Source: Gemmatimonadota bacterium
Lineage (GTDB): Bacteria > Gemmatimonadota > Gemmatimonadetes > Gemmatimonadales > GWC2-71-9
DNA length: 64,000 bases
Assembly (NCBI GenBank): GCA_036679605.1
Contig: JAZDCZ010000365.1
Coordinates: 1-64,000 of the forward strand
Reading direction: 5' to 3'
Below the pieces are notes generated by a model. That model had not been told where the DNA came from and ran no database searches. It was given only the letters and a program-made list of their open reading frames with translations. The number at the start of each line of letters is the position of its first letter. The first letter of the stretch is position 1. Made by a program: the position numbers and the translations under genes. Of the stretch, positions 367 through 17,895 are shown piece after piece.

Positions 367-453
367 CTACTCCATGACACCTTCGCCGAGGCGGCGTTCG
401 ATCTTGTAGCGGTCGGCGAGGGCAGACTTGAGGCGATCGAACATGTCGAGCAT
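367..453 (-). pseudogene. Ser/Thr kinase N-terminal stub 1 (28 aa)
   Basis: MLDMFDRLKSALADRYKIERRLGEGVME* matches the start of the kinase at 11339 (MSDIFDRLKAALADRYSIEKEVGAGGM). Confidence 0.85.
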
Positions 454-4533: not shown

Positions 4534-4600
4534 ACAATAAGAGCCAATGATGGAACCCATTGTCGATCGAGCCGACTTTCCCGCGAGTTATGAGTGTGCG

Positions 4601-4683
4601 CGTGCGATCTCGGACGACATGCTGTGGTACCGGGAGGCGTCTGAAGAGACTATCCAGATCGTTGATGAGAACAAGTAGAGTCT
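4601..4683 (+). repeat. Orphan copy of the 3' end of kinase K4 (17758-17840)
   Basis: 83-bp ungapped alignment with 9 mismatches (counted by hand), including the stop codon. Confidence 0.92.
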
Positions 4684-4754
4684 AGGGAAGGCGTCTCGAC
4701 TCACTCTCCCTCAAGTCAACGCAACCTATCCTTTAAGCTCTGGAAGTGATCGCG

Positions 4755-5939
4755 ATGAAATTTCTACAATTGTCCATGGTGTTCCTGCTAACTCTGTGGG
4801 GCGTTCCGAGCTACGCACTCAGCCAGAATTCCACAGACGAGCTAATCAAGATTATCGAGGGCGTACAACACCCCGATAGGCAAGGACTTGATTCATATAC
4901 CCTCAATGAGCTGATGGATCGATTTGGGGTTCCTGGCGTCAGTATCGCAGTCATCAAGGACTTCAAAATTCACTGGGCGAAAGGGTATGGTATTGCCGAC
5001 GTGGAGACAGGTGCAAGAGTCGATACCGAGACATTATTTCAGGCCGCATCCATCAGCAAGCCTGTCAATGCGATGGCTGTGTTAAGAGCTGCCCAAGACG
5101 GCAAATTCTCTATGGATGACGATATCAACACCATTCTGAAATCGTGGAAATTGCCCGACAGCCCATTCACGAAAAATCAGTCTGTATCCCCCCGCATGCT
5201 GGCCAGCCATACTTCCGGCTTAGGCGATGGATTTGGTTTCCCGGGTTATGATCCGTCCGATCCTCGCCCAACAACGATCCAGATCCTCAATAACGATAAA
5301 CCTTCGAATGTCGGGCCGGTGTTGCTCGCAAGACCTCCTATGACCGCATTCCATTACTCAGGGGGCGGCGTGACGATTTTGCAGCTGGCACTGACCGATG
5401 TGATCGGCAGACCCTATCCAGAGATTCTTCAGGAATATGTATTGGGACCGGTTGGCATGACGCAAAGTACATTCGAGCAACCACTGTCTCCTGAACGTGA
5501 TAAGAATGCGGCTCGGGCTCACGGCGGCGGCGGCGAGGCAGGGGATGTAAAATGGCATGTCTACCCCGAACTTGCTGCCGCAGGATTATGGACCACGCCT
5601 ACGGATCTAGCAAAATTTGCGATTGAAGTGCAGAAGTCCCTACGAGGTGAAGCGAATAACGTGCTTTCACCGACGATGATCAAAGAGATGTTGAGCCCGG
5701 TCGGTGTCGGCGATTATGCCGTCGGCTTCTCAGTCACTAAGGAAGGTCAGGGATGGTACTTCGGCCATGGCGGCGGTAACTGGGGTTTCAGGTGTCTACT
5801 GGCAGCACACAAAGTAAAAGGCTACGGATTCGCTATTATGACGAACGCTCAAAACGGTGGCAACATAACGAATGAACTGAAGCGGCGTATTGAGCGAGCG
5901 TATGGCTATGATTCACTGGACAAGCCCGTCCGACGTTAG
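4755..5939 (+). CDS. Secreted serine hydrolase, beta-lactamase class C/AmpC-like family
   Basis: Signal peptide; FQAASISK (SxxK), FHYSGGG, FGHGGG. Confidence 0.9.
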   Translation: MKFLQLSMVFLLTLWGVPSYALSQNSTDELIKIIEGVQHPDRQGLDSYTLNELMDRFGVPGVSIAVIKDFKIHWAKGYGIADVETGARVDTETLFQAASISKPVNAMAVLRAAQDGKFSMDDDINTILKSWKLPDSPFTKNQSVSPRMLASHTSGLGDGFGFPGYDPSDPRPTTIQILNNDKPSNVGPVLLARPPMTAFHYSGGGVTILQLALTDVIGRPYPEILQEYVLGPVGMTQSTFEQPLSPERDKNAARAHGGGGEAGDVKWHVYPELAAAGLWTTPTDLAKFAIEVQKSLRGEANNVLSPTMIKEMLSPVGVGDYAVGFSVTKEGQGWYFGHGGGNWGFRCLLAAHKVKGYGFAIMTNAQNGGNITNELKRRIERAYGYDSLDKPVRR

Positions 5940-5971: not shown

Positions 5972-6086
5972 GTTCTTATCAGGAGGTCGTAAGGAGGTCC
6001 GCGACTCTTGCGGTGTCTGTAGCAACCAGCGTATCAACGACTTAGCAAGTCGCTATTGACGGCTGTTAACCGTCGGGTCGGGGGTT
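5972..6086 (+). repeat. att-like repeat R2 (most complete copy)
   Basis: GGAGGTC x2; TATCAACGACTTA (6032-6044) matches IHF consensus WATCARNNNNTTR; ends in a tRNA-like fragment. Confidence 0.9.
6058..6086 (+). pseudogene. tRNA-Asn(GTT) fragment: anticodon arm, variable loop, 5' T-stem
   Basis: GACGG-CTGTTAA-CCGTC perfect 5-bp stem with 7-nt loop, then GGGTC, then GGGGG-TT; no D-arm or acceptor stem. Confidence 0.7.
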
Positions 6087-6293
6087 GACCATCACGCGTC
6101 TTCGATCCGCTTGGCTGCGCCTGCGCGTCGAGTCCCTCCTCCGGAGTTCCGCAGAGTCCAAACGACTCCGCGTCACTCACGACGTAACTGACAGGAAACG
6201 CCATGCGGCAACCAAGGTCCGTCGCTAGGGAGACGACACCCCTCTTCACGAGAAACTTCTTAATGGTGTTAGTTGCCGGCGGCCAGCTACCGT

Positions 6294-8159
6294 TCACCCA
6301 AGCTCCGCTACAGCCCGAAGTGCCTGTTCTATGGCTGCTTGAGTGTAGGCGGAGGCAGCCGCATCGGAATTTGCGATGGTGATGTTTCCGATGGGTTGCC
6401 GCGCGATCTCATGCGGCGCCCTCCCCGGTTCCCATTCAGGGTCCCACAGCTCGAGATAATCGTAGGCGTATCCGTGCGGCCAGCGGTTGACGGTGATGGC
6501 CAGGATATCATCGGCCACATCGAAACCGCCAGGACCAAGCATACGGTCGAGCACCGTACGGACTTCGCGCTCGAAGTCCTCGAAGGTCAGGCCCAGCATG
6601 ATTCCCCTGGCCGCCCGAAGTTGATCGTGAATGGGAACGTCACGGCGCGGGGGAGCGATCGTGCCCCAGAACATGAGTGGCACCGGACCCGTGTCATTGT
6701 TGCTGGGTCGATACCCCGCCGTGTGTACCCCGTCGATCAACCAGACCTTGGCATGCATGCGGCCAGGGCAGTACGCACCCGAGATACCAAGTCGGTCGAG
6801 CGCTTCACGGCTTCGCACCAGGACATTGGTCAGCAGCATGGGATGCTTGACCTGATATCGTTGCGCCTCTTGCTGTGCCTCGGGCACTTCCGGACACAGG
6901 TGAGGAATGATCGCATGATAGCAGGCCAACACTGCGTGGTGGGCACGTACACGCACGACCGATCCATCCCGGACGTACGTCGCCGTGACCTCACCGTCGG
7001 CATTGGCGATATGCACGGCCGTGGATTCGAGACGCAGGCGAACCGGAGAGCTGGGGCGATCGAGTTGTGCATAGTCGAACCGCGCTACGGCGATGTTCTG
7101 CGAGTTGGCCGCTGGGGCAATGGCGGGAATGAGCGAGCGGACCAGCAGCCGAGCAATGGACGCGTTGCCATCGGGGAACATGGCCACGGCTTCGGATTCC
7201 TCCGAGCCCGCCACCCGATCGGCGGCGTCTCCCAGAAGATGCGATCCGGGCAACCATGCCTGCATGGCCTCGGCAGCCGAAAGGCTGTGGGTCTGCACGC
7301 CCCAGTACCCGTCCATTGCCTTGATGAACAGTTCGACGACGTCGTCGGGAAGGCCGGCGTGTACGGACAGGAACTCCGTGTAACTCGTCCCATGCAACAC
7401 GCGATCGATTTCCGACTCGTCCATCCCCTCCAGCACGGTTGCATCGGCGGCATAGAATCGCTTCAGCGCAGCACGTCCCGATTCGCTAATGGGAAACCGA
7501 TCGATGCTGTCTAGCGCGTCCAGGTTTCTGCTGTACATGGAGAATCCGGGCACCATGACATCGCGTCCGTACGTCTCGGCGTCGAACCAGATGGCCGGCT
7601 TGTCGGCGCCGTAATGGAACTCCAGCTCGCTGCTCAGGCGATGGACGTCGATACCCAGCTCTTCCAGAAACCCGAGGACGGTGTCACTGAACGAGAGGAA
7701 CTCCAGATTCATCGTCCCGCCCCACGATAGTCGCATGACACCGTCGTGATGAAACTCGTTGCGCTTGGCGTGGCCACCGAAGTCATCGTGATTGTCGAGG
7801 ATCAGGATGCGTGATTCCGACCCAAACCTCTTGCGATACTGATACGCCGCCGTCAGACCGCTGATGCCGGCGCCGACGACCACGAGGTCGTAGTGCTCGT
7901 CGAGGTCCACGGGATCGTCGAATCGGACACCCTCGCGAGCGAGGGCGTGGGCGGTTTCGAACGAACCCGGATGTGAGCCCCGCATTCCCGTCCTGGCGGG
8001 CGGGTAGTCCGCGCCTGGGGGCATCACGATGTGGCCCGGGGTCTTGCTCGAGCACCCCGAGGTAGCCATAAGGCCCAACGCGGCGAGCCCAGTGTCGTGA
8101 ATGAAGTCGCGACGGCTGATCTGTCGCTGCATGCCGAGTTCGCGATCCGATTTTCTCAC
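6294..8159 (-). CDS. Tat-exported FAD-dependent oxidoreductase, spermidine dehydrogenase SpdH-like
   Basis: SRRDFI Tat motif; YPPARTGMRGSHPGSFETAH; GAGISG; FGGHAKRNEF; NRWPHGYAY. Confidence 0.85.
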   Translation of the reverse strand: MRKSDRELGMQRQISRRDFIHDTGLAALGLMATSGCSSKTPGHIVMPPGADYPPARTGMRGSHPGSFETAHALAREGVRFDDPVDLDEHYDLVVVGAGISGLTAAYQYRKRFGSESRILILDNHDDFGGHAKRNEFHHDGVMRLSWGGTMNLEFLSFSDTVLGFLEELGIDVHRLSSELEFHYGADKPAIWFDAETYGRDVMVPGFSMYSRNLDALDSIDRFPISESGRAALKRFYAADATVLEGMDESEIDRVLHGTSYTEFLSVHAGLPDDVVELFIKAMDGYWGVQTHSLSAAEAMQAWLPGSHLLGDAADRVAGSEESEAVAMFPDGNASIARLLVRSLIPAIAPAANSQNIAVARFDYAQLDRPSSPVRLRLESTAVHIANADGEVTATYVRDGSVVRVRAHHAVLACYHAIIPHLCPEVPEAQQEAQRYQVKHPMLLTNVLVRSREALDRLGISGAYCPGRMHAKVWLIDGVHTAGYRPSNNDTGPVPLMFWGTIAPPRRDVPIHDQLRAARGIMLGLTFEDFEREVRTVLDRMLGPGGFDVADDILAITVNRWPHGYAYDYLELWDPEWEPGRAPHEIARQPIGNITIANSDAAASAYTQAAIEQALRAVAELG

Positions 8160-8266
8160 TGAGACTCCTCGTCAGGTACTGTCGCCATGCCGCCTTCGCC
8201 GAGTTCGCGCTTGATCTCGTATTTGTCAGCGAGGGCGGCTTTGAGACGGTCGACTTGATCGGTCAT
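8156..8266 (-). pseudogene. Ser/Thr kinase N-terminal stub 2 (36 aa); its stop overlaps the SpdH-like GTG start (GTGA)
   Basis: MTDQVDRLKAALADKYEIKRELGEGGMATVPDEESQ*; it and ~50 bp upstream match K3 (14186-14235). Confidence 0.9.
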
Positions 8267-8333
8267 ATGGGAATGAAAGATGTAGCCGGAACGGGATCTA
8301 GGCGAATCGGCGATCTTGATGTATGAAGCGGGA

Positions 8334-8351
8334 GCTCTGATCAGGAGGTCG
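8334..8351 (+). repeat. att-like repeat R3 (truncated)
   Basis: GCTCTGATCAGGAGGTCG at the same distance from the kinase ATG as R5. Confidence 0.7.
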
Positions 8352-8390
8352 AGGAGTGAGAGCGGGTTCGAAGAAAGGACGGGTGGAGGT

Positions 8391-11339
8391 CTACCGCCTT
8401 TCCCCTTTCAATCGTGCCAGCGCCCCACGTATTTCGTCCACTTCGGGTTGGACCGACGGTTCGGGGTCGCTCCGCAGTGCAAGATACTGAGAGTATGCAT
8501 CGATGGCCCGATCGCGGTCTCCCGCAAGTTCGGCGAGCCGACCGGATTCCCTTAGATGCGTGGCAAGAGGGAGCATATATCCCAAGTAGTATTCATGTCT
8601 GCCGGCTGCCGCGGACGCCCGGGCGTATGCCCCTTCGCCCTCGAGCAGACGGGCCAGGAAGAGATTCTCCCACCTAGGCCGGTAGGGTCTCGTCAGCAAC
8701 AATTCGTCTAGTCTGTCGATCAACTGGCCGGCATCGGCTTGACCGCGACGCTGTGCCAACGCGGCCTCTAGGAGATCGGCACAGACCATATCCCTCGCTG
8801 GGGGCCACGTAGGATCGCGATCGATATGACGGTCGCGAAGTTCTCGAGTAATGGGCGGAATGGCGTCAAACCGATTGTGTTCGAACTGCCACAACACCAT
8901 TGCACACAAATCACGCCCTCCGATGGTGGCTTCGCCAGAGGCCGCTACCTGTTCCTCTAACTCACGATACGCCCTGAATCCCTCCACCGAATCACCAGAC
9001 CGCAGCATCGATGAAAACAGCCATCCGGCCGGGCCGATGTTCCCACGCCGAGCTGCTTCGGCTGCTTCAACCGGTCGCCCAGCATCCCACGCCAAGAAGG
9101 CCTCCCGTGCTGACACTCTCTCTCGTCCTACTTCGCTGACCGTTACCCGGCGTAGCCGAGCCATGAACTCGCGAAAGTCCGAAATGTGGTTGACGGCAAA
9201 CGGCAACATGAGTGCGACGCCTTGGACAACCGGACGGTCGATGGTCCCGGTATCGAGGAGTGCAAGGGCCGCGTTTCGTAAGGCCGTGTCGCCCAACACC
9301 ACTCCAGCGAGCCAGCGTTCCGGAATCCCAGCAACGGGATCGCCGACCGCGGCGTCGTTGAGACGCATGTAGCGGCGAATGTCAGCCGTGTCTCCGCGGT
9401 TGACGGCAAGCAGAAAGAGGTGCTGCAGCGGACCGGCAACCGAGGAATCCCGTTCGACCGCCCGGGCGAAGGCGCGCTCGGCCCGGAGGAACGGGTCATC
9501 GACCCCCAGCAGGTTGCCGTCGTGCATGTAGCTGTCACCGAGAAAGTACCACGCCTCCGAGCGGTCCTCGGCAATCCTCACCGCCTCCTCTCGAGCTCGC
9601 AACAACGTGGCACCATTGTCCGGATCCGGTCCGTTGGTCCCCATTACCGCGGTCACGATGGCACGGTCCTTAGTTCCTAGGTCGTCTCTACCGCGCCAGG
9701 CTGCTCGTTGTCCGATGGCATAGACCCGACCCCCAGCTGTAGCGGACCAACCGTTCGCCTTCACCAACCCCACTCCCGCCAACGCGAAGTTGGTGTCCGT
9801 CTCCAGCGCCTCTGTAAACCGGTTCACGGCTTCCGAATACCGCGCACTGCGGTACTCGACCTGGCCACGGAGATAGGCCCGGAGCGCCGGAAGCGACGCG
9901 GTCAGATTCGCACTTTGCTCGGCGCCGATACCCGCTGTTCGCGCGAGAAGTTGTCCGACGAAGCGCGGCAATAGCGCGAGGGCGCTGTCCGCCGGTCCTT
10001 CGACGTTGGCCTGCACGGACGCGACTCGGCCGTCGACAGAGGCGAGTGACCCTCGCAGCACGAGCCGGGCATCGGATTCGACCACGGCCCCGGTGAGCAC
10101 GAGACCGGCACCGAGCGAACGCGCCAACTCGATCGCCTGCACTTCATCGAGATCTTCGCGGTCCGACGATACCTCACGCCGCCACGCGCTTATCACGGTA
10201 CCCGGGTCGGCCGACATCGGCGTCCCGCCTTCGCCGGTCAAGAACGTGGCCATGAGATCGACCATGCCCTCACGCAGGTCGGCCACCTGATCGGCCGAGC
10301 CAACCACCCGGAACGGGAGAACGACAACGAGGTTCTCGTCGAGCGCCGTCGCGCCACCCGTACGCCCGAGGGCAAACCATCCGATGAAGACCAAGGCAAC
10401 CGCGGCGACCGCCATCCCTGCCCGACGACCGAGCTTCGGACTCACCGCCGACACAGCACTCACGGGCCGAGTATCGGTCGGTGTCATGCCGACACTTGGC
10501 GTGGCAATCCCCTCGAGCCGCGTGAGTAACTCATCCGCGCTCTGCCACCGATCCGCCGCTTTCTTCTCCAAGCACCGCATCACGAGATCCGCCAAGGGTG
10601 CGGGAACCGTTGCTCGACGTGTCGTGACGGGCGTCGCCGGTTCGGTAACGTGAGCTGCGAGGATCTGTTGCGGGCTACTCCCCGTGAACGGCGGTGCGCC
10701 AGTCAGCATCTCATACGCCATCGCCCCAAAAGCGTAGATGTCCGCGCGATGATCGATGTGGGGGTCAGCAGAGGCTTGCTCCGGCGACATGTAGGACGGC
10801 GTTCCAAGAGCGACCCCTGCTGTCGTGATCGCGTGACGCCCGGTCGCCTCGCTTATCGCCTTAGCCACACCAAAGTCCGCGACGAGTGCGTGCCGATCGG
10901 CCAGCATCACGTTGTCGGGCTTGATGTCGCGGTGCACCACTCCTTGCGCGTGAGCCTTAGCGAGCGCGTCCGCGACTTCCTTGAGAATACGCACGGCATC
11001 GGAGATCGGTAACTCGCCTTCACGCGCCAATCGCTCACGCAACGATTCCCCCTCCACGTACGGCATCACATAGAACAGGAATCCGTCGGCTTCGCCGGAA
11101 TCGTAGAGCGGCAGAATGTGGGGATGCGTAAGGCCTGCCGCGATCTCGATCTCGCGCACGAACCGCTCCGGTCCGACGGTTTCACTCAGTTCAGCCCGCA
11201 ACACTTTCACGGCCACCTTGCGGTGGTGCTTCAAGTCTTCGGCGAGATAGACCGTGGCCATGCCACCCGCACCGACTTCCTTCTCTATGGAATAGCGGTC
11301 GGCGAGAGCTGCCTTGAGGCGATCGAAGATGTCGGACAT
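8391..11339 (-). CDS. Ser/Thr protein kinase K2: kinase, single TM, TolB-N-like domain, TPR-like helical region
   Basis: GAGGMATVY, VAVK, HRDIKPDN, DFG, GTPSYMSPE; TM AMAVAAVALVFIGWFAL; LVVVLPF. Confidence 0.93.
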   Translation of the reverse strand: MSDIFDRLKAALADRYSIEKEVGAGGMATVYLAEDLKHHRKVAVKVLRAELSETVGPERFVREIEIAAGLTHPHILPLYDSGEADGFLFYVMPYVEGESLRERLAREGELPISDAVRILKEVADALAKAHAQGVVHRDIKPDNVMLADRHALVADFGVAKAISEATGRHAITTAGVALGTPSYMSPEQASADPHIDHRADIYAFGAMAYEMLTGAPPFTGSSPQQILAAHVTEPATPVTTRRATVPAPLADLVMRCLEKKAADRWQSADELLTRLEGIATPSVGMTPTDTRPVSAVSAVSPKLGRRAGMAVAAVALVFIGWFALGRTGGATALDENLVVVLPFRVVGSADQVADLREGMVDLMATFLTGEGGTPMSADPGTVISAWRREVSSDREDLDEVQAIELARSLGAGLVLTGAVVESDARLVLRGSLASVDGRVASVQANVEGPADSALALLPRFVGQLLARTAGIGAEQSANLTASLPALRAYLRGQVEYRSARYSEAVNRFTEALETDTNFALAGVGLVKANGWSATAGGRVYAIGQRAAWRGRDDLGTKDRAIVTAVMGTNGPDPDNGATLLRAREEAVRIAEDRSEAWYFLGDSYMHDGNLLGVDDPFLRAERAFARAVERDSSVAGPLQHLFLLAVNRGDTADIRRYMRLNDAAVGDPVAGIPERWLAGVVLGDTALRNAALALLDTGTIDRPVVQGVALMLPFAVNHISDFREFMARLRRVTVSEVGRERVSAREAFLAWDAGRPVEAAEAARRGNIGPAGWLFSSMLRSGDSVEGFRAYRELEEQVAASGEATIGGRDLCAMVLWQFEHNRFDAIPPITRELRDRHIDRDPTWPPARDMVCADLLEAALAQRRGQADAGQLIDRLDELLLTRPYRPRWENLFLARLLEGEGAYARASAAAGRHEYYLGYMLPLATHLRESGRLAELAGDRDRAIDAYSQYLALRSDPEPSVQPEVDEIRGALARLKGERR

Positions 11340-11376
11340 GAGGGACAGCAATATAGGAGGCGCTCGCTCTTGGCGC

Positions 11377-11448
11377 GAGGTCGTACGGAGGTCTGCGACC
11401 CTTTCCGGATCTGTAGCAACCAGTGTCTCAACGACTTAGCAAGTCGGA
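11377..11448 (+). repeat. att-like repeat R4
   Basis: GAGGTCGTACGGAGGTCTGCGACCCTTTCCGGATCTGTAGCAACCAGTGTCTCAACGACTTAGCAAGTCGGA; abuts the hspQ stop. Confidence 0.9.
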
Positions 11449-11449
11449 T

Positions 11450-11752
11450 TCAACTCCAGAGCGAGTTGCTGTAGGTGCCCCCTCGAAACTGATCAAAGAA
11501 ATCGTCCACCTCCGGGTGTCTAATGGGTTCCCTGCTGACGTCTGGTTCGAGATGCCGTTCAGCCACGTACGTTCGGTGCGATGTCCCATGGACGAGTACG
11601 TGATACCAAGGCTTGTCTTTGGGTGGACGGGATCGAGCGACCTCATCGTACCACTCGTCCGACCCTATGAAGGTTTCGTCCACTCCTGTGATCACACCTC
11701 TGTAGTCAAACTTCCGATGATGAACCGTTTGCCCGATGGTGAACGTGCCCAT
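11450..11752 (-). CDS. hspQ: Heat shock protein HspQ (YccV-like)
   Basis: FTIGQTVHHRKFDYRGVI..VD, PWYHVLV, TYVAERHLE, HP motifs. Confidence 0.88.
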   Translation of the reverse strand: MGTFTIGQTVHHRKFDYRGVITGVDETFIGSDEWYDEVARSRPPKDKPWYHVLVHGTSHRTYVAERHLEPDVSREPIRHPEVDDFFDQFRGGTYSNSLWS

Positions 11753-14253: not shown

Positions 14254-14354
14254 GCTCGAATCCGGAGGTCGTAGGGAGGTCCGCGACCCTTTCCGGATCT
14301 GCAGCAATCAGCGTCTCAATTGCTTAGCAAGTCGGAAGGAACCGCAGTTAACCG
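14254..14354 (+). repeat. att-like repeat R5
   Basis: GCTCGAATCCGGAGGTCGTAGGGAGGTCCGCGACCCTTTCCGGATCTGCAGCAATCAGCGTCTCAATTGCTTAGCAAGTCGG...GTTAACCG. Confidence 0.9.
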
Positions 14355-14377
14355 GTGGGCGTTTCGGGCGCTGGCGA

Positions 14378-15478: not shown

Positions 15479-15613
15479 TTAACCCATAGCTGACCTTGCC
15501 CGCAGTCGTCCCACCCGTACCTTGTGCGTATCCTCATTGCCGACCGGCCAGCATCCGAGGAGAAGTACCTATGGATGATTGGTCGTTCTGTCCCAAGTGC
15601 GGCACCAAGTTCG
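15479..15613 (+). repeat. Duplicated block B: promoter, RBS and first 14 codons of K1 (stub ORF 15571-15669)
   Basis: MDDWSFCPKCGTKF, then unrelated residues to TGA; precedes K4. Confidence 0.95.
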
Positions 15614-15702: not shown

Positions 15703-17835
15703 ATGACCGCACCTGACCGTATCTGCACATCCTGCGATGCTAGAGTGGCTGCCGATGCCGCGTTCTGCCCAAAGTGCGGCAGTCAAGTAGCGGCGGGAGT
15801 TCCTGCAACCTCCGACCCCCTCTTGGCTGCCCTGGAACGTGCGGTGGGCTCACAGTACGAGATCACCAGACTCTTGGGTCGAGGCGGCATGGGATCGGTG
15901 TATCTGGCGCGTGAGACCGCGCTGGACAGGCTCGTTGCCATCAAGGTGCTGACCCCTGAAGGAGCAGACGCCGAGAGCTACGAGCGGTTTCGCCGGGAGG
16001 CGAAGACCGCCGCCAGGCTAACCCACCCCAATATCGTGCCGCTCTACACGTTCGGCGAAGCCCAAGGCGTAATGTACTTCGTCATGGGCTACGTGAGTGG
16101 TGAGTCATTGGGTGCCAGGCTCAAGCGGATGGGGAAGACCGATCCGAATGAAGCGCGTCGCATTATCGCCGATATAGCGGCGGCGTTGCATTACGCGCAT
16201 CAGCAGGGAGTGGTGCATCGTGACATCAAGCCCGACAACATCCTGATCGACGATGACAGTAACAAGCCGATGCTCACGGACTTTGGCGTCGCTAAGACTC
16301 TCGCACGCGGTGAGACGTTGACGCAGATCGGTGCCACACTCGGCACGCCACATTACATGTCACCCGAACAGGCCGCCGGTGACCGCGAGATCGACGGCAG
16401 GAGCGATCTCTACTCGCTGGGCGTCGTAGGCTATCAGATGTTGTCGGGGCGGCTGCCGTTTGAGGGTGACAGCGTGCGCGACGTACTGGTACAACACGTA
16501 ACGAAGGAACCAGTTCCTATCGGCGTGTTGGATCCTACGGTCCCGGAAGACCTGGCCCGTGTGATCGACCAGTGCATGGCCAAGGACAGCGACGAAAGGA
16601 TGAGTGACGGCGAGGCCGTGCATACTGCACTCGGCGTGCAAAAGGGCGCGCACGACTTGATACCGGCAGACATGGAAGACAGTGTACAAACGTTGAGGCT
16701 TCTCGGCTGGCTGAGTGGAGGTTTGCTCACTCTGTCGAACAACATGTTCACCGCCTGGATGTGGGGCCGCGTAGCGAGTGATGCTTGGTCAGGAGCGTGG
16801 TTGGCATTGGGTGGAATTGGGTTGTTTGCCGTCCCGGCGTTGACGATGCGGTGGACTAAGAAATTCGGCCGGCACTCCTGGCGGGATATTTTAAAGTGGG
16901 TGTTTCGGCAGCCCGCCCGTTGGACCATGTGGTGGCCGCGTCCATTCAGGCGTCAGGACGACATGTGGGATCGGCTTCCCAAGCCGGTCAAGCGCGGTCG
17001 TGTCGCGCAGGGTTGGCTTGCCGGGTCCGGTAGCCTGTTCGTCGCCACGGTCCCCGGCTTTTTTTGGCTAGTCGTTTCATCGGATTGGGTGTTTTATCCT
17101 GAAAATGCGATGATCGCTCTCATGGTGGTGTTGGGGGGCACAATCGGTTGGCCAATGCTTGAGGCGGTACGTATTGATCGCTGGGCCAAGCGGATCGGAC
17201 TGCCCAAAGCGATCAGGAAAAAGTTGTGGTCGGCTCCGACCGCCGATGTTGACTTTTGGACCAAGCCTCCCCTGAACCAGTTTCTGCGTGGCGGATCGAT
17301 CCAGGGGAAGCTCGCTGGTGAGAGCTTGCCACAAACGCCTCCTGCCTACCTGCAAGCCATCGAGAACGCAGTTATCGAGCTAGATGGTGCTCCGAAACAA
17401 ATAACTAGAGATGCTGCGGCAGTGGGCCGCGAGTTGCTCGGTCACATCGAGAGACTGGATGAGCAGATCCGCAGTCTCGGTGAAGAGACCGATCCGGGCG
17501 AGGTCGCTCAACTAGAACAGAAGCTGATGGCACTGGGTGACCCGTCCGACTCGGAGAGCAATTCCCAAACCCGCAAGCGGGAGTTGTTGGCAGAGCAGCT
17601 GGAGCTTGCCCGGCGCATGATCACCCAGTTTGAGAGCGCTAAGGAACGCCGCGATCGCCTGCTTGAGATGCTCAAGACCGTATGGCGGCAAGTCTCGAAC
17701 CTCAAAGCCCAAGCTGCGGACCCCACCTTCGATGGGCGTGAGGTCAGTGCCAAGGTGCGTGCGATCTCGGACGACATGCGGCGGTATCAGGAGGCGTCTG
17801 ATGAGACGATCCAGATCGTCGATGAGAACACATAG
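15703..17835 (+). CDS. Ser/Thr protein kinase K4: zinc ribbon, kinase, about 4 TM, coiled coil
   Basis: CTSC..CPKC; GRGGMG, VAIK, HRDIKPDN, DFG, GTPHYMSPE. Confidence 0.93.
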   Translation: MTAPDRICTSCDARVAADAAFCPKCGSQVAAGVPATSDPLLAALERAVGSQYEITRLLGRGGMGSVYLARETALDRLVAIKVLTPEGADAESYERFRREAKTAARLTHPNIVPLYTFGEAQGVMYFVMGYVSGESLGARLKRMGKTDPNEARRIIADIAAALHYAHQQGVVHRDIKPDNILIDDDSNKPMLTDFGVAKTLARGETLTQIGATLGTPHYMSPEQAAGDREIDGRSDLYSLGVVGYQMLSGRLPFEGDSVRDVLVQHVTKEPVPIGVLDPTVPEDLARVIDQCMAKDSDERMSDGEAVHTALGVQKGAHDLIPADMEDSVQTLRLLGWLSGGLLTLSNNMFTAWMWGRVASDAWSGAWLALGGIGLFAVPALTMRWTKKFGRHSWRDILKWVFRQPARWTMWWPRPFRRQDDMWDRLPKPVKRGRVAQGWLAGSGSLFVATVPGFFWLVVSSDWVFYPENAMIALMVVLGGTIGWPMLEAVRIDRWAKRIGLPKAIRKKLWSAPTADVDFWTKPPLNQFLRGGSIQGKLAGESLPQTPPAYLQAIENAVIELDGAPKQITRDAAAVGRELLGHIERLDEQIRSLGEETDPGEVAQLEQKLMALGDPSDSESNSQTRKRELLAEQLELARRMITQFESAKERRDRLLEMLKTVWRQVSNLKAQAADPTFDGREVSAKVRAISDDMRRYQEASDETIQIVDENT

Positions 17836-17895
17836 AGTCTGAGTTGACTATTGGTCACCCGAAGAACTCTCTCAGGGCTCCACCTGCTGGTCTCG

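Follow-up and report, generated by a model that had tools for sequence, protein, structure and literature searches.

In the genome of a Gemmatimonadota bacterium, a gene for an SpdH-like FAD oxidoreductase (spdH) follows directly on a short 5′-remnant of a Ser/Thr kinase gene. On balance, it is probable that spdH was joined to kinase codon 30 by illegitimate recombination, with its transcription likely driven by the predicted promoter of the kinase; the locus, as read from the DNA, is probably a real and recent promoter capture. By itself, a single locus of this kind is an ordinary promoter capture, and the interest lies in the scale, the polarity and the shuffling of such units. The stretch analyzed, referred to as the window, is 64,000 nt long and corresponds to C296:1-64000 of genome G000 (6.72 Mb in 434 contigs; 96.5% complete, 6.3% contamination).

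All the elements of the join lie on the minus strand. K3 (14186-11796), an intact Ser/Thr kinase with TPRs, is followed by a YccV-like gene, by K2 (11339-8391), a second intact Ser/Thr kinase, by the stub, an ORF of 36 aa (8266-8156), and finally by the gene for a 621-aa protein (8159-6294), which is the cargo. The block 8351-8177, comprising 85 nt upstream of the stub ATG and codons 1-30, is homologous to K3 at 14271-14097 (138/175 nt, 79%, E=2e-38); 67 of the 85 upstream positions match (43/50 in the nearest part), as do 71 of 90 nt in the codons and 23 of 30 amino acids. The sequence-only reading, which had reported homology of the upstream region and of 30 codons to K3, was right about its presence and not about its extent, put at about 50 bp upstream; the 85 nt also take in the end of a 100-nt repeat. 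Its statement that homology stops right after GEGGMATV is borne out, because only 10 of the following 60 nt match. K3 is the best match of the stub among the full kinases of G000; however, since 79% identity is merely the median nearest-neighbour level within the family (78.7%), K3 is, on these alignments, a sibling of the stub and not its parent copy.

The cargo side of the join was defined through L061, one of nine related loci, which is 91.7% identical to the window over 8180-6294 and encodes a protein with 90% amino acid identity to the cargo product. L061 has the same 21-nt leader (8180-8160 in the window), with its GAGGAG (8170-8165), and no kinase 5′-end upstream. Homology to K3 ends at 8177 and homology to the cargo begins at 8180, so that 3-4 nt (8180-8177) are common to both sides. 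Because L061 has the leader without the stub, the last six codons of the stub, the ribosome site and the stop codon are, by this comparison, derived from the cargo and not from the kinase. L061 is the single independent case of a stub-less relative with the full leader; in L062 and L063, the gene is found in different contexts, and a kinase 5′-end was likewise not detected. Another cargo behind a stub of G000, a solute-binding protein on C214, also has a stub-less homologue, 91% identical, in G042.

The GAGGAG within the stub tail and the 4-nt GTGA overlap between the stub TGA (8158-8156) and the cargo GTG (8159-8157) were both located where the sequence-only reading had seen them. The overlapping TGA consists of the cargo start codon plus an A in the stub's frame, and it is therefore in that frame one time in three. 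The view that the cargo replaced the kinase body agrees with the inferred history, merely 21 nt of its own leader having been retained; the view that it borrowed the kinase translation start found no support, since the cargo retains its own start codon and GAGGAG, both of which are present in the stub-less L061. A microhomology-mediated deletion or replacement may have created the join, removing the kinase body.

A promoter-like motif, TCGCCT (8305-8300)-17 nt-CATCTT (8282-8277), sits 10 nt 5′ of the stub ATG, and a Shine-Dalgarno is absent in between; this spacing suggests a leaderless or near-leaderless stub start, and transcription would begin about 3-4 nt 5′ of the ATG. The pattern was found at 10 of 26 close kinases (in nine of them 6-10 nt before the start) and at 19 of 36 stub-like loci, compared with 0.2% of random 83-mers and the upstream regions of 92 of 5787 genes; as it was made in this analysis from kinase upstream regions, its enrichment is partly circular. 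A sigma-70 and terminator scan of 8000-8600 found none, and it missed the motif. L061 has its own copy of the motif about 130 nt ahead of the gene start, which is absent at the window locus, and between the break and the cargo start the motif was found at 0 of 18 loci. The junction is thus a hybrid, with a leader and a ribosome site from the cargo and without the cargo's own promoter-like motif; because this motif is lost, the transcription of spdH must, as far as the comparison goes, come from upstream. Read-through transcription from K2 is possible.

In the promoter-capture deletions of Steinrueck and Guet, as described in the available text (eLife 2017, PMC5526668), the loss of intervening DNA brings an upstream, co-oriented promoter to a gene. 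The stub-spdH join would work alike: the cargo's own promoter region is lost, as judged against L061 alone, and the co-oriented kinase block 8351-8177 adjoins the gene. The known deletions are single events, whereas here one family gives about 30 within G000, and the donor start codon and first codons remain.

The cargo gene is intact, and its product matches Pseudomonas aeruginosa SpdH across residues 14-621 (E=1e-123). The two proteins share the FAD-binding motif, and the histidines of GSHPG and RWxHG (H63 and H562 of the cargo) align with the haem ligands of SpdH, whose positions are given in the accessible part of PMC12564564 (PDB 7D9F-7D9J). Full-length homology and the two haem histidines place the cargo in the SpdH family, the members seen sharing about 42-47% identity. 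In the public run X1, a more abundant organism (depth about 93) carries an spdH roughly 92% identical to that of the window (6355-8158), consistent with gene sharing among co-occurring bacteria. Convergent with spdH, the window encodes at 4746-5939 a serine hydrolase with a beta-lactamase fold, which falls far under every named class C cut-off.

G000 contains 100 kinase domains. A DNA profile of kinase 5′-ends identified 36 5′-only loci, of which 34 were retained; those dropped were a full divergent kinase (C113) and a locus at a contig end (C311). The break points are scattered across codons 12-49, and for this reason the idea of a "cassette end" fails in the site-specific sense, while that of an "expression platform", a prediction from sequence, fits the genome-wide pattern of stubs ahead of co-oriented genes. 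With a domain-long profile, 24 5′-only fragments were obtained, all ending by position 187 of 940. One 5′-fragment ends later, on C383, and is an internal deletion; its other half is the sole close-family 3′-piece off contig ends, and there are no free-standing ones. Five other 5′-only rows were long divergent kinases, and of eight short internal fragments, one scored like the close family. Stubs at C26, L075 and L091 are internal deletions of kinases. A control ABC permease family with about 40 copies had no 5′-stubs, though at about 30% identity short ones would escape. Stub length and decay had no significant link (rho=-0.23, p=0.20), and gradual trimming of the stubs was not shown.

A co-oriented gene start lies within -100 to +200 nt of the break at 24 of 35 scorable loci, compared with 11.7% of 5000 random positions; the count takes in C26, where a C-terminal piece left of a kinase stands for the "gene", but not C301:4851, since the gene caller dropped the cargo there, and the null is generous, as deletions sparing the next gene always end near a gene boundary. 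The next gene is co-oriented at 30/34 stubs vs. 41/57 intact kinases (p=0.02), a modest excess, and four loci are faced by an opposite-strand gene. The cargos, as seen in 32 proteins of G000 and its relatives, are varied, including a histidine kinase, solute-binding proteins, an MFS transporter, an FAH hydrolase, RidA-like, Sel1 and BrnT proteins and unknowns; at least three are in-frame fusions with the stub.

Independent joins number about 30, and four joins occur twice in G000 with different neighbours. What lies behind the stub-FAH unit varies: on C265 it is a stub-RidA unit, on C88 a stub fused to Sel1 and in G001, which is a second species of the genus, a kinase 5′-end that is not broken; the C265 unit and that of G001 are 92% identical over 1129 nt. 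On C301, the stub-RidA unit in turn precedes a full kinase, and on C265 it precedes a third stub, the homology continuing across the next promoter. These neighbour switches at the repeated 5′-block are as homologous recombination would give; since the neighbours of the units differ, stub-cargo units may be moved from one kinase array to another by homologous recombination at the repeated block of promoter and 5′-end. Some duplicate units could come from two strains in one bin, given its 6.7 Mb with 6.3% contamination; however, the G001 case is unexplained by that.

Among the relatives, G041 and G042 have 126 and 133 kinase matches, respectively, many of them short and 5′. In 20 regions, which were picked for short 5′-matches and are thus no unbiased sample, and 3 metagenome loci, there were 27 5′-only loci, of which 14 are close to a co-oriented start (including three kinases and one internal deletion), 5 face the opposite way, 4 are far from a start, 3 lie inside a gene and 1 is at an edge. 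Certain truncations in these regions reach further into the kinase domain. In G017, G018 and G021, with 37-54 matches each, clear stubs are few, and the short 5′-matches are mostly adjacent pairs resembling frameshifts; stubs are therefore not family-wide, being many in two relatives and few in three. The unpublished genome G015 enters the tallies of relatives only, and no claim is based on it. In the arrays of G041 (L074, L075 and L076), kinases are interleaved with pairs of small toxin-antitoxin-like and nucleotidyltransferase-like genes, among which one Phd/YefM antitoxin was confirmed; some stubs of these arrays start on the stop of the preceding kinase, without a promoter of their own.

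The polarity of the fragments bears on a second explanation, namely that the stub is inert, left when a dispensable kinase decayed up to the next useful gene, with spdH silent or read through from K2. Only 40 nt separate the K2 stop from the homology block, with no terminator found over 8000-8600; moreover, 72% of intact kinases already precede a co-oriented gene, and several stubs have frameshifts or have lost their starts. Neutral decay, however, should also leave 3′- and internal pieces, whereas nearly 5′-ends alone were seen; in addition, the motif and the frame are intact at the window stub, and one stub-cargo unit has been retained in two species. We therefore regard inert decay as unlikely. 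Under promoter capture, the 34 polar 5′-fragments with scattered ends observed in G000 may persist through expressing the gene behind them.

The left part of the window provides the context for a third explanation. A 100-nt repeat occurs 5′ of K3 (R3, 14260-14361), of K2 (R2, 11372-11473) and of a second stub (R0, 528-629), as well as behind spdH (R1); its last part alone survives ahead of the spdH stub (8351-8339). R1, together with exact 29-nt and 19-nt pieces (6058-6086 and 6128-6146) of the tRNA-Asn of C334 (region C334:79205-79328), spans 5978-6146 on the plus strand and is a likely attachment-site remnant. All four repeats match the IHF consensus with 0-1 mismatch. Because of the tRNA-Asn pieces and the IHF-like sites, this part of the window looks like an island made by repeated integration, in which the repeats resemble serial attachment-site remnants. 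The repeat was not found in G041, G042, G043, G001 and G002, two of which have nothing of it but the 29-nt tRNA piece. With regard to attC palindromes, none of the 25 longest of 42 inverted repeats lies at the join, and the tRNA-Asn pieces are contained in the spaced repeat R.

Several other features were observed in the window. The second stub (367-453, minus strand, 28 aa), in the same island, is without cargo; behind it come non-coding DNA and a repeat present on four other contigs; the first 200 nt of the contig match four other contigs at 92-98% and are probably an insertion-sequence end. Two plus-strand zinc-ribbon kinases have 5′- and 3′-flanks that are 89-96% alike (1438-1573 vs. 15479-15613 and 4600-4683 vs. 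17757-17840); by these flanks, they are a further family whose ends are conserved. K1 and a kinase on C87 are 86.6% alike.

Dedicated capture, in which a recombinase, or homology-facilitated illegitimate recombination (HFIR) in the course of transformation, targets foreign DNA to kinase 5′-ends, would account for the strong 5′-polarity and for the varied cargo, toxin-antitoxin genes included; several kinase arrays adjoin tRNA genes, the tRNA-Asn attachment-like repeats run across the island, and the junction microhomology is like that reported for HFIR in the available text of PMC6382021. Nevertheless, this explanation is improbable, more so than inert decay. The scatter of the breaks points to no fixed site, and C296, whose left end is open, has no PF00589 or TIGR02249 match; the TIGR02249 integron integrase scored over cut-off on C73 and C407 only, neither of which holds a stub among those found. 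HFIR, furthermore, moves DNA already beside the anchor and would by itself leave the 5′-polarity unexplained.

Much less probable again is a selected leader peptide, the translation of the stub being needed for, or regulating, that of the cargo, as for ORF-11 of class 1 integrons. The stop overlapping the next start (GTGA) is of the ORF-11 type, and stop-start overlaps (-4 or -1) were found at 7/22 loci vs. 3/44 alternative frames (Fisher p=0.012); with in-frame fusions added, the count is 7/28 (p=0.04), and p is 0.17 when only non-fusion frames are considered. The 22 loci, 14 from G000 and 8 others, have the cargo start after the break; left out of the count were 4 loci without a found start, 3 before kinases and 9 whose start was called within the stub, and all cargo starts are calls of this analysis's own gene caller. 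The layout is real, and the modest enrichment is no more than suggestive of stub-cargo coupling. ORF-11 and ORF-17 boost even a cassette with its own Shine-Dalgarno, according to the accessible part of PMC8876359; here, however, a GAGGAG belonging to the cargo is present, the TGA arises simply from the cargo start codon, and RNA folding, both upstream and across the join, was no better than for shuffles (z = +1.15, -1.38 and +0.89, the junction being at about -1.4). With promoter capture as the preferred reading, ribosomes finishing the stub at the cargo's start codon may add to initiation from the GAGGAG.

An assembly chimera of a kinase with the spdH of another organism, for which the roughly 92% identical gene of the abundant X1 organism and the lack of a second copy of the join in metagenome contigs or in 400 genomes of the order could be invoked, is scarcely credible, since one X1 contig covers 8129-10931 with 0 differences, reaching 48 nt beyond the join at a depth of 24.6 (15-19 in neighbour contigs), and since the pattern recurs, another join being common to two species. 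Reads failing to span the junction would have spoken for a chimera in the sequence-only reading, and this bridging contig counts against it; the contig is no second biological sighting, however, since X1 could be the source sample. The junction pattern had 0 matches in metagenome contigs, and runs X2, X3 and X5 yielded nothing beyond short pieces of relatives. No match in 40 relatives spans the join, and the cargo start region matched only G355 among the 400 genomes; G355, placed in the family of G000, is the genome of L061 and hence no second witness.

Kinase starts are likely to serve as reusable promoters for acquired genes and, likewise, as recombination handles for them, as the repeated 5′-blocks suggest. 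A broader proposal, which we put forward tentatively and with less confidence than the capture at the single locus, is that the near-identical 5′-ends of the 100-member kinase family together make up a platform for gene capture, distributed and integrase-free, the kinase expansion doubling as the lineage's integron. If so, a foreign gene landing behind any of these kinase 5′-ends would find there a promoter, a start that is nearly leaderless and a handle for homology; it would be expressed at once, and arrays and species could exchange it as a stub-cargo cassette. The way in which acquired genes come to be expressed is a long-standing problem in horizontal transfer. In this case, dozens of ready-made promoters per genome appear to come from a single expanded signalling family, and unrelated enzymes may come under kinase-type regulation.

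Among known systems, putative mobile promoters, like the stubs, place highly similar upstream DNA (43/50 nt here) before unrelated genes in one genome. According to the available text (Nijveen, Matus-Garcia, van Passel 2012, PMC3575422), most of their families consist of two members, and those in which the similarity reached coding DNA were removed, whereas the block shared here spans 12-49 codons in dozens of copies. At 43/50, the upstream match is above their threshold of at least 80% over at least 50 nt, with their -150 to -50 window partly covered (24/35 beyond -50); on the other hand, paralogous coding sequence, 30 kinase codons, adjoins the block, which by this comparison leaves the stubs just outside the definition.

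In class 1 integrons, the Pc/attI1 region with ORF-11, ORF-17 or ORF-18 likewise joins a fixed promoter and a short ORF to varied, arrayed cargo, and the stop of the short ORF comes from the leader of the incoming gene (PMC8876359, in the part available). The kinase stubs lack both a fixed crossover site and a neighbouring integrase, and there is one copy of the platform per cargo; an integron was rejected, as C296, up to its open left end, has no integrase match and the crossovers are scattered over codons 12-49. Polymorphic toxin cassettes (Biol Direct 2012;7:18, PMC3482391), as portrayed in the accessible text, share a constant 5′-part with variable, recombined 3′-parts, but here most cargo lies out of frame and is of unrelated kinds (enzymes, binding proteins and transporters); at spdH, such a cassette was rejected because of the out-of-frame SpdH-like cargo and the absence of toxin-immunity pairing. 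Searches for literature on Gemmatimonadota kinase expansions or stubs, or on promoter capture with truncated leaderless genes, in a collection with few subscription journals, returned none describing this pattern.

As to the bin, C343 has 24 clustered tRNA genes on one contig; these clusters, together with a size of 6.7 Mb vs. 2-4.4 Mb in relatives, indicate that it may include foreign DNA. For annotation, stubs give rise to spurious kinase ORFs of very small size and lengthen secreted proteins at the N-terminus. In a crude test, a hydrophobic N-terminal stretch was present in 15 of 24 cargo proteins of G000 compared with 32% of 5284 genes, and captured genes may be biased toward exported proteins.
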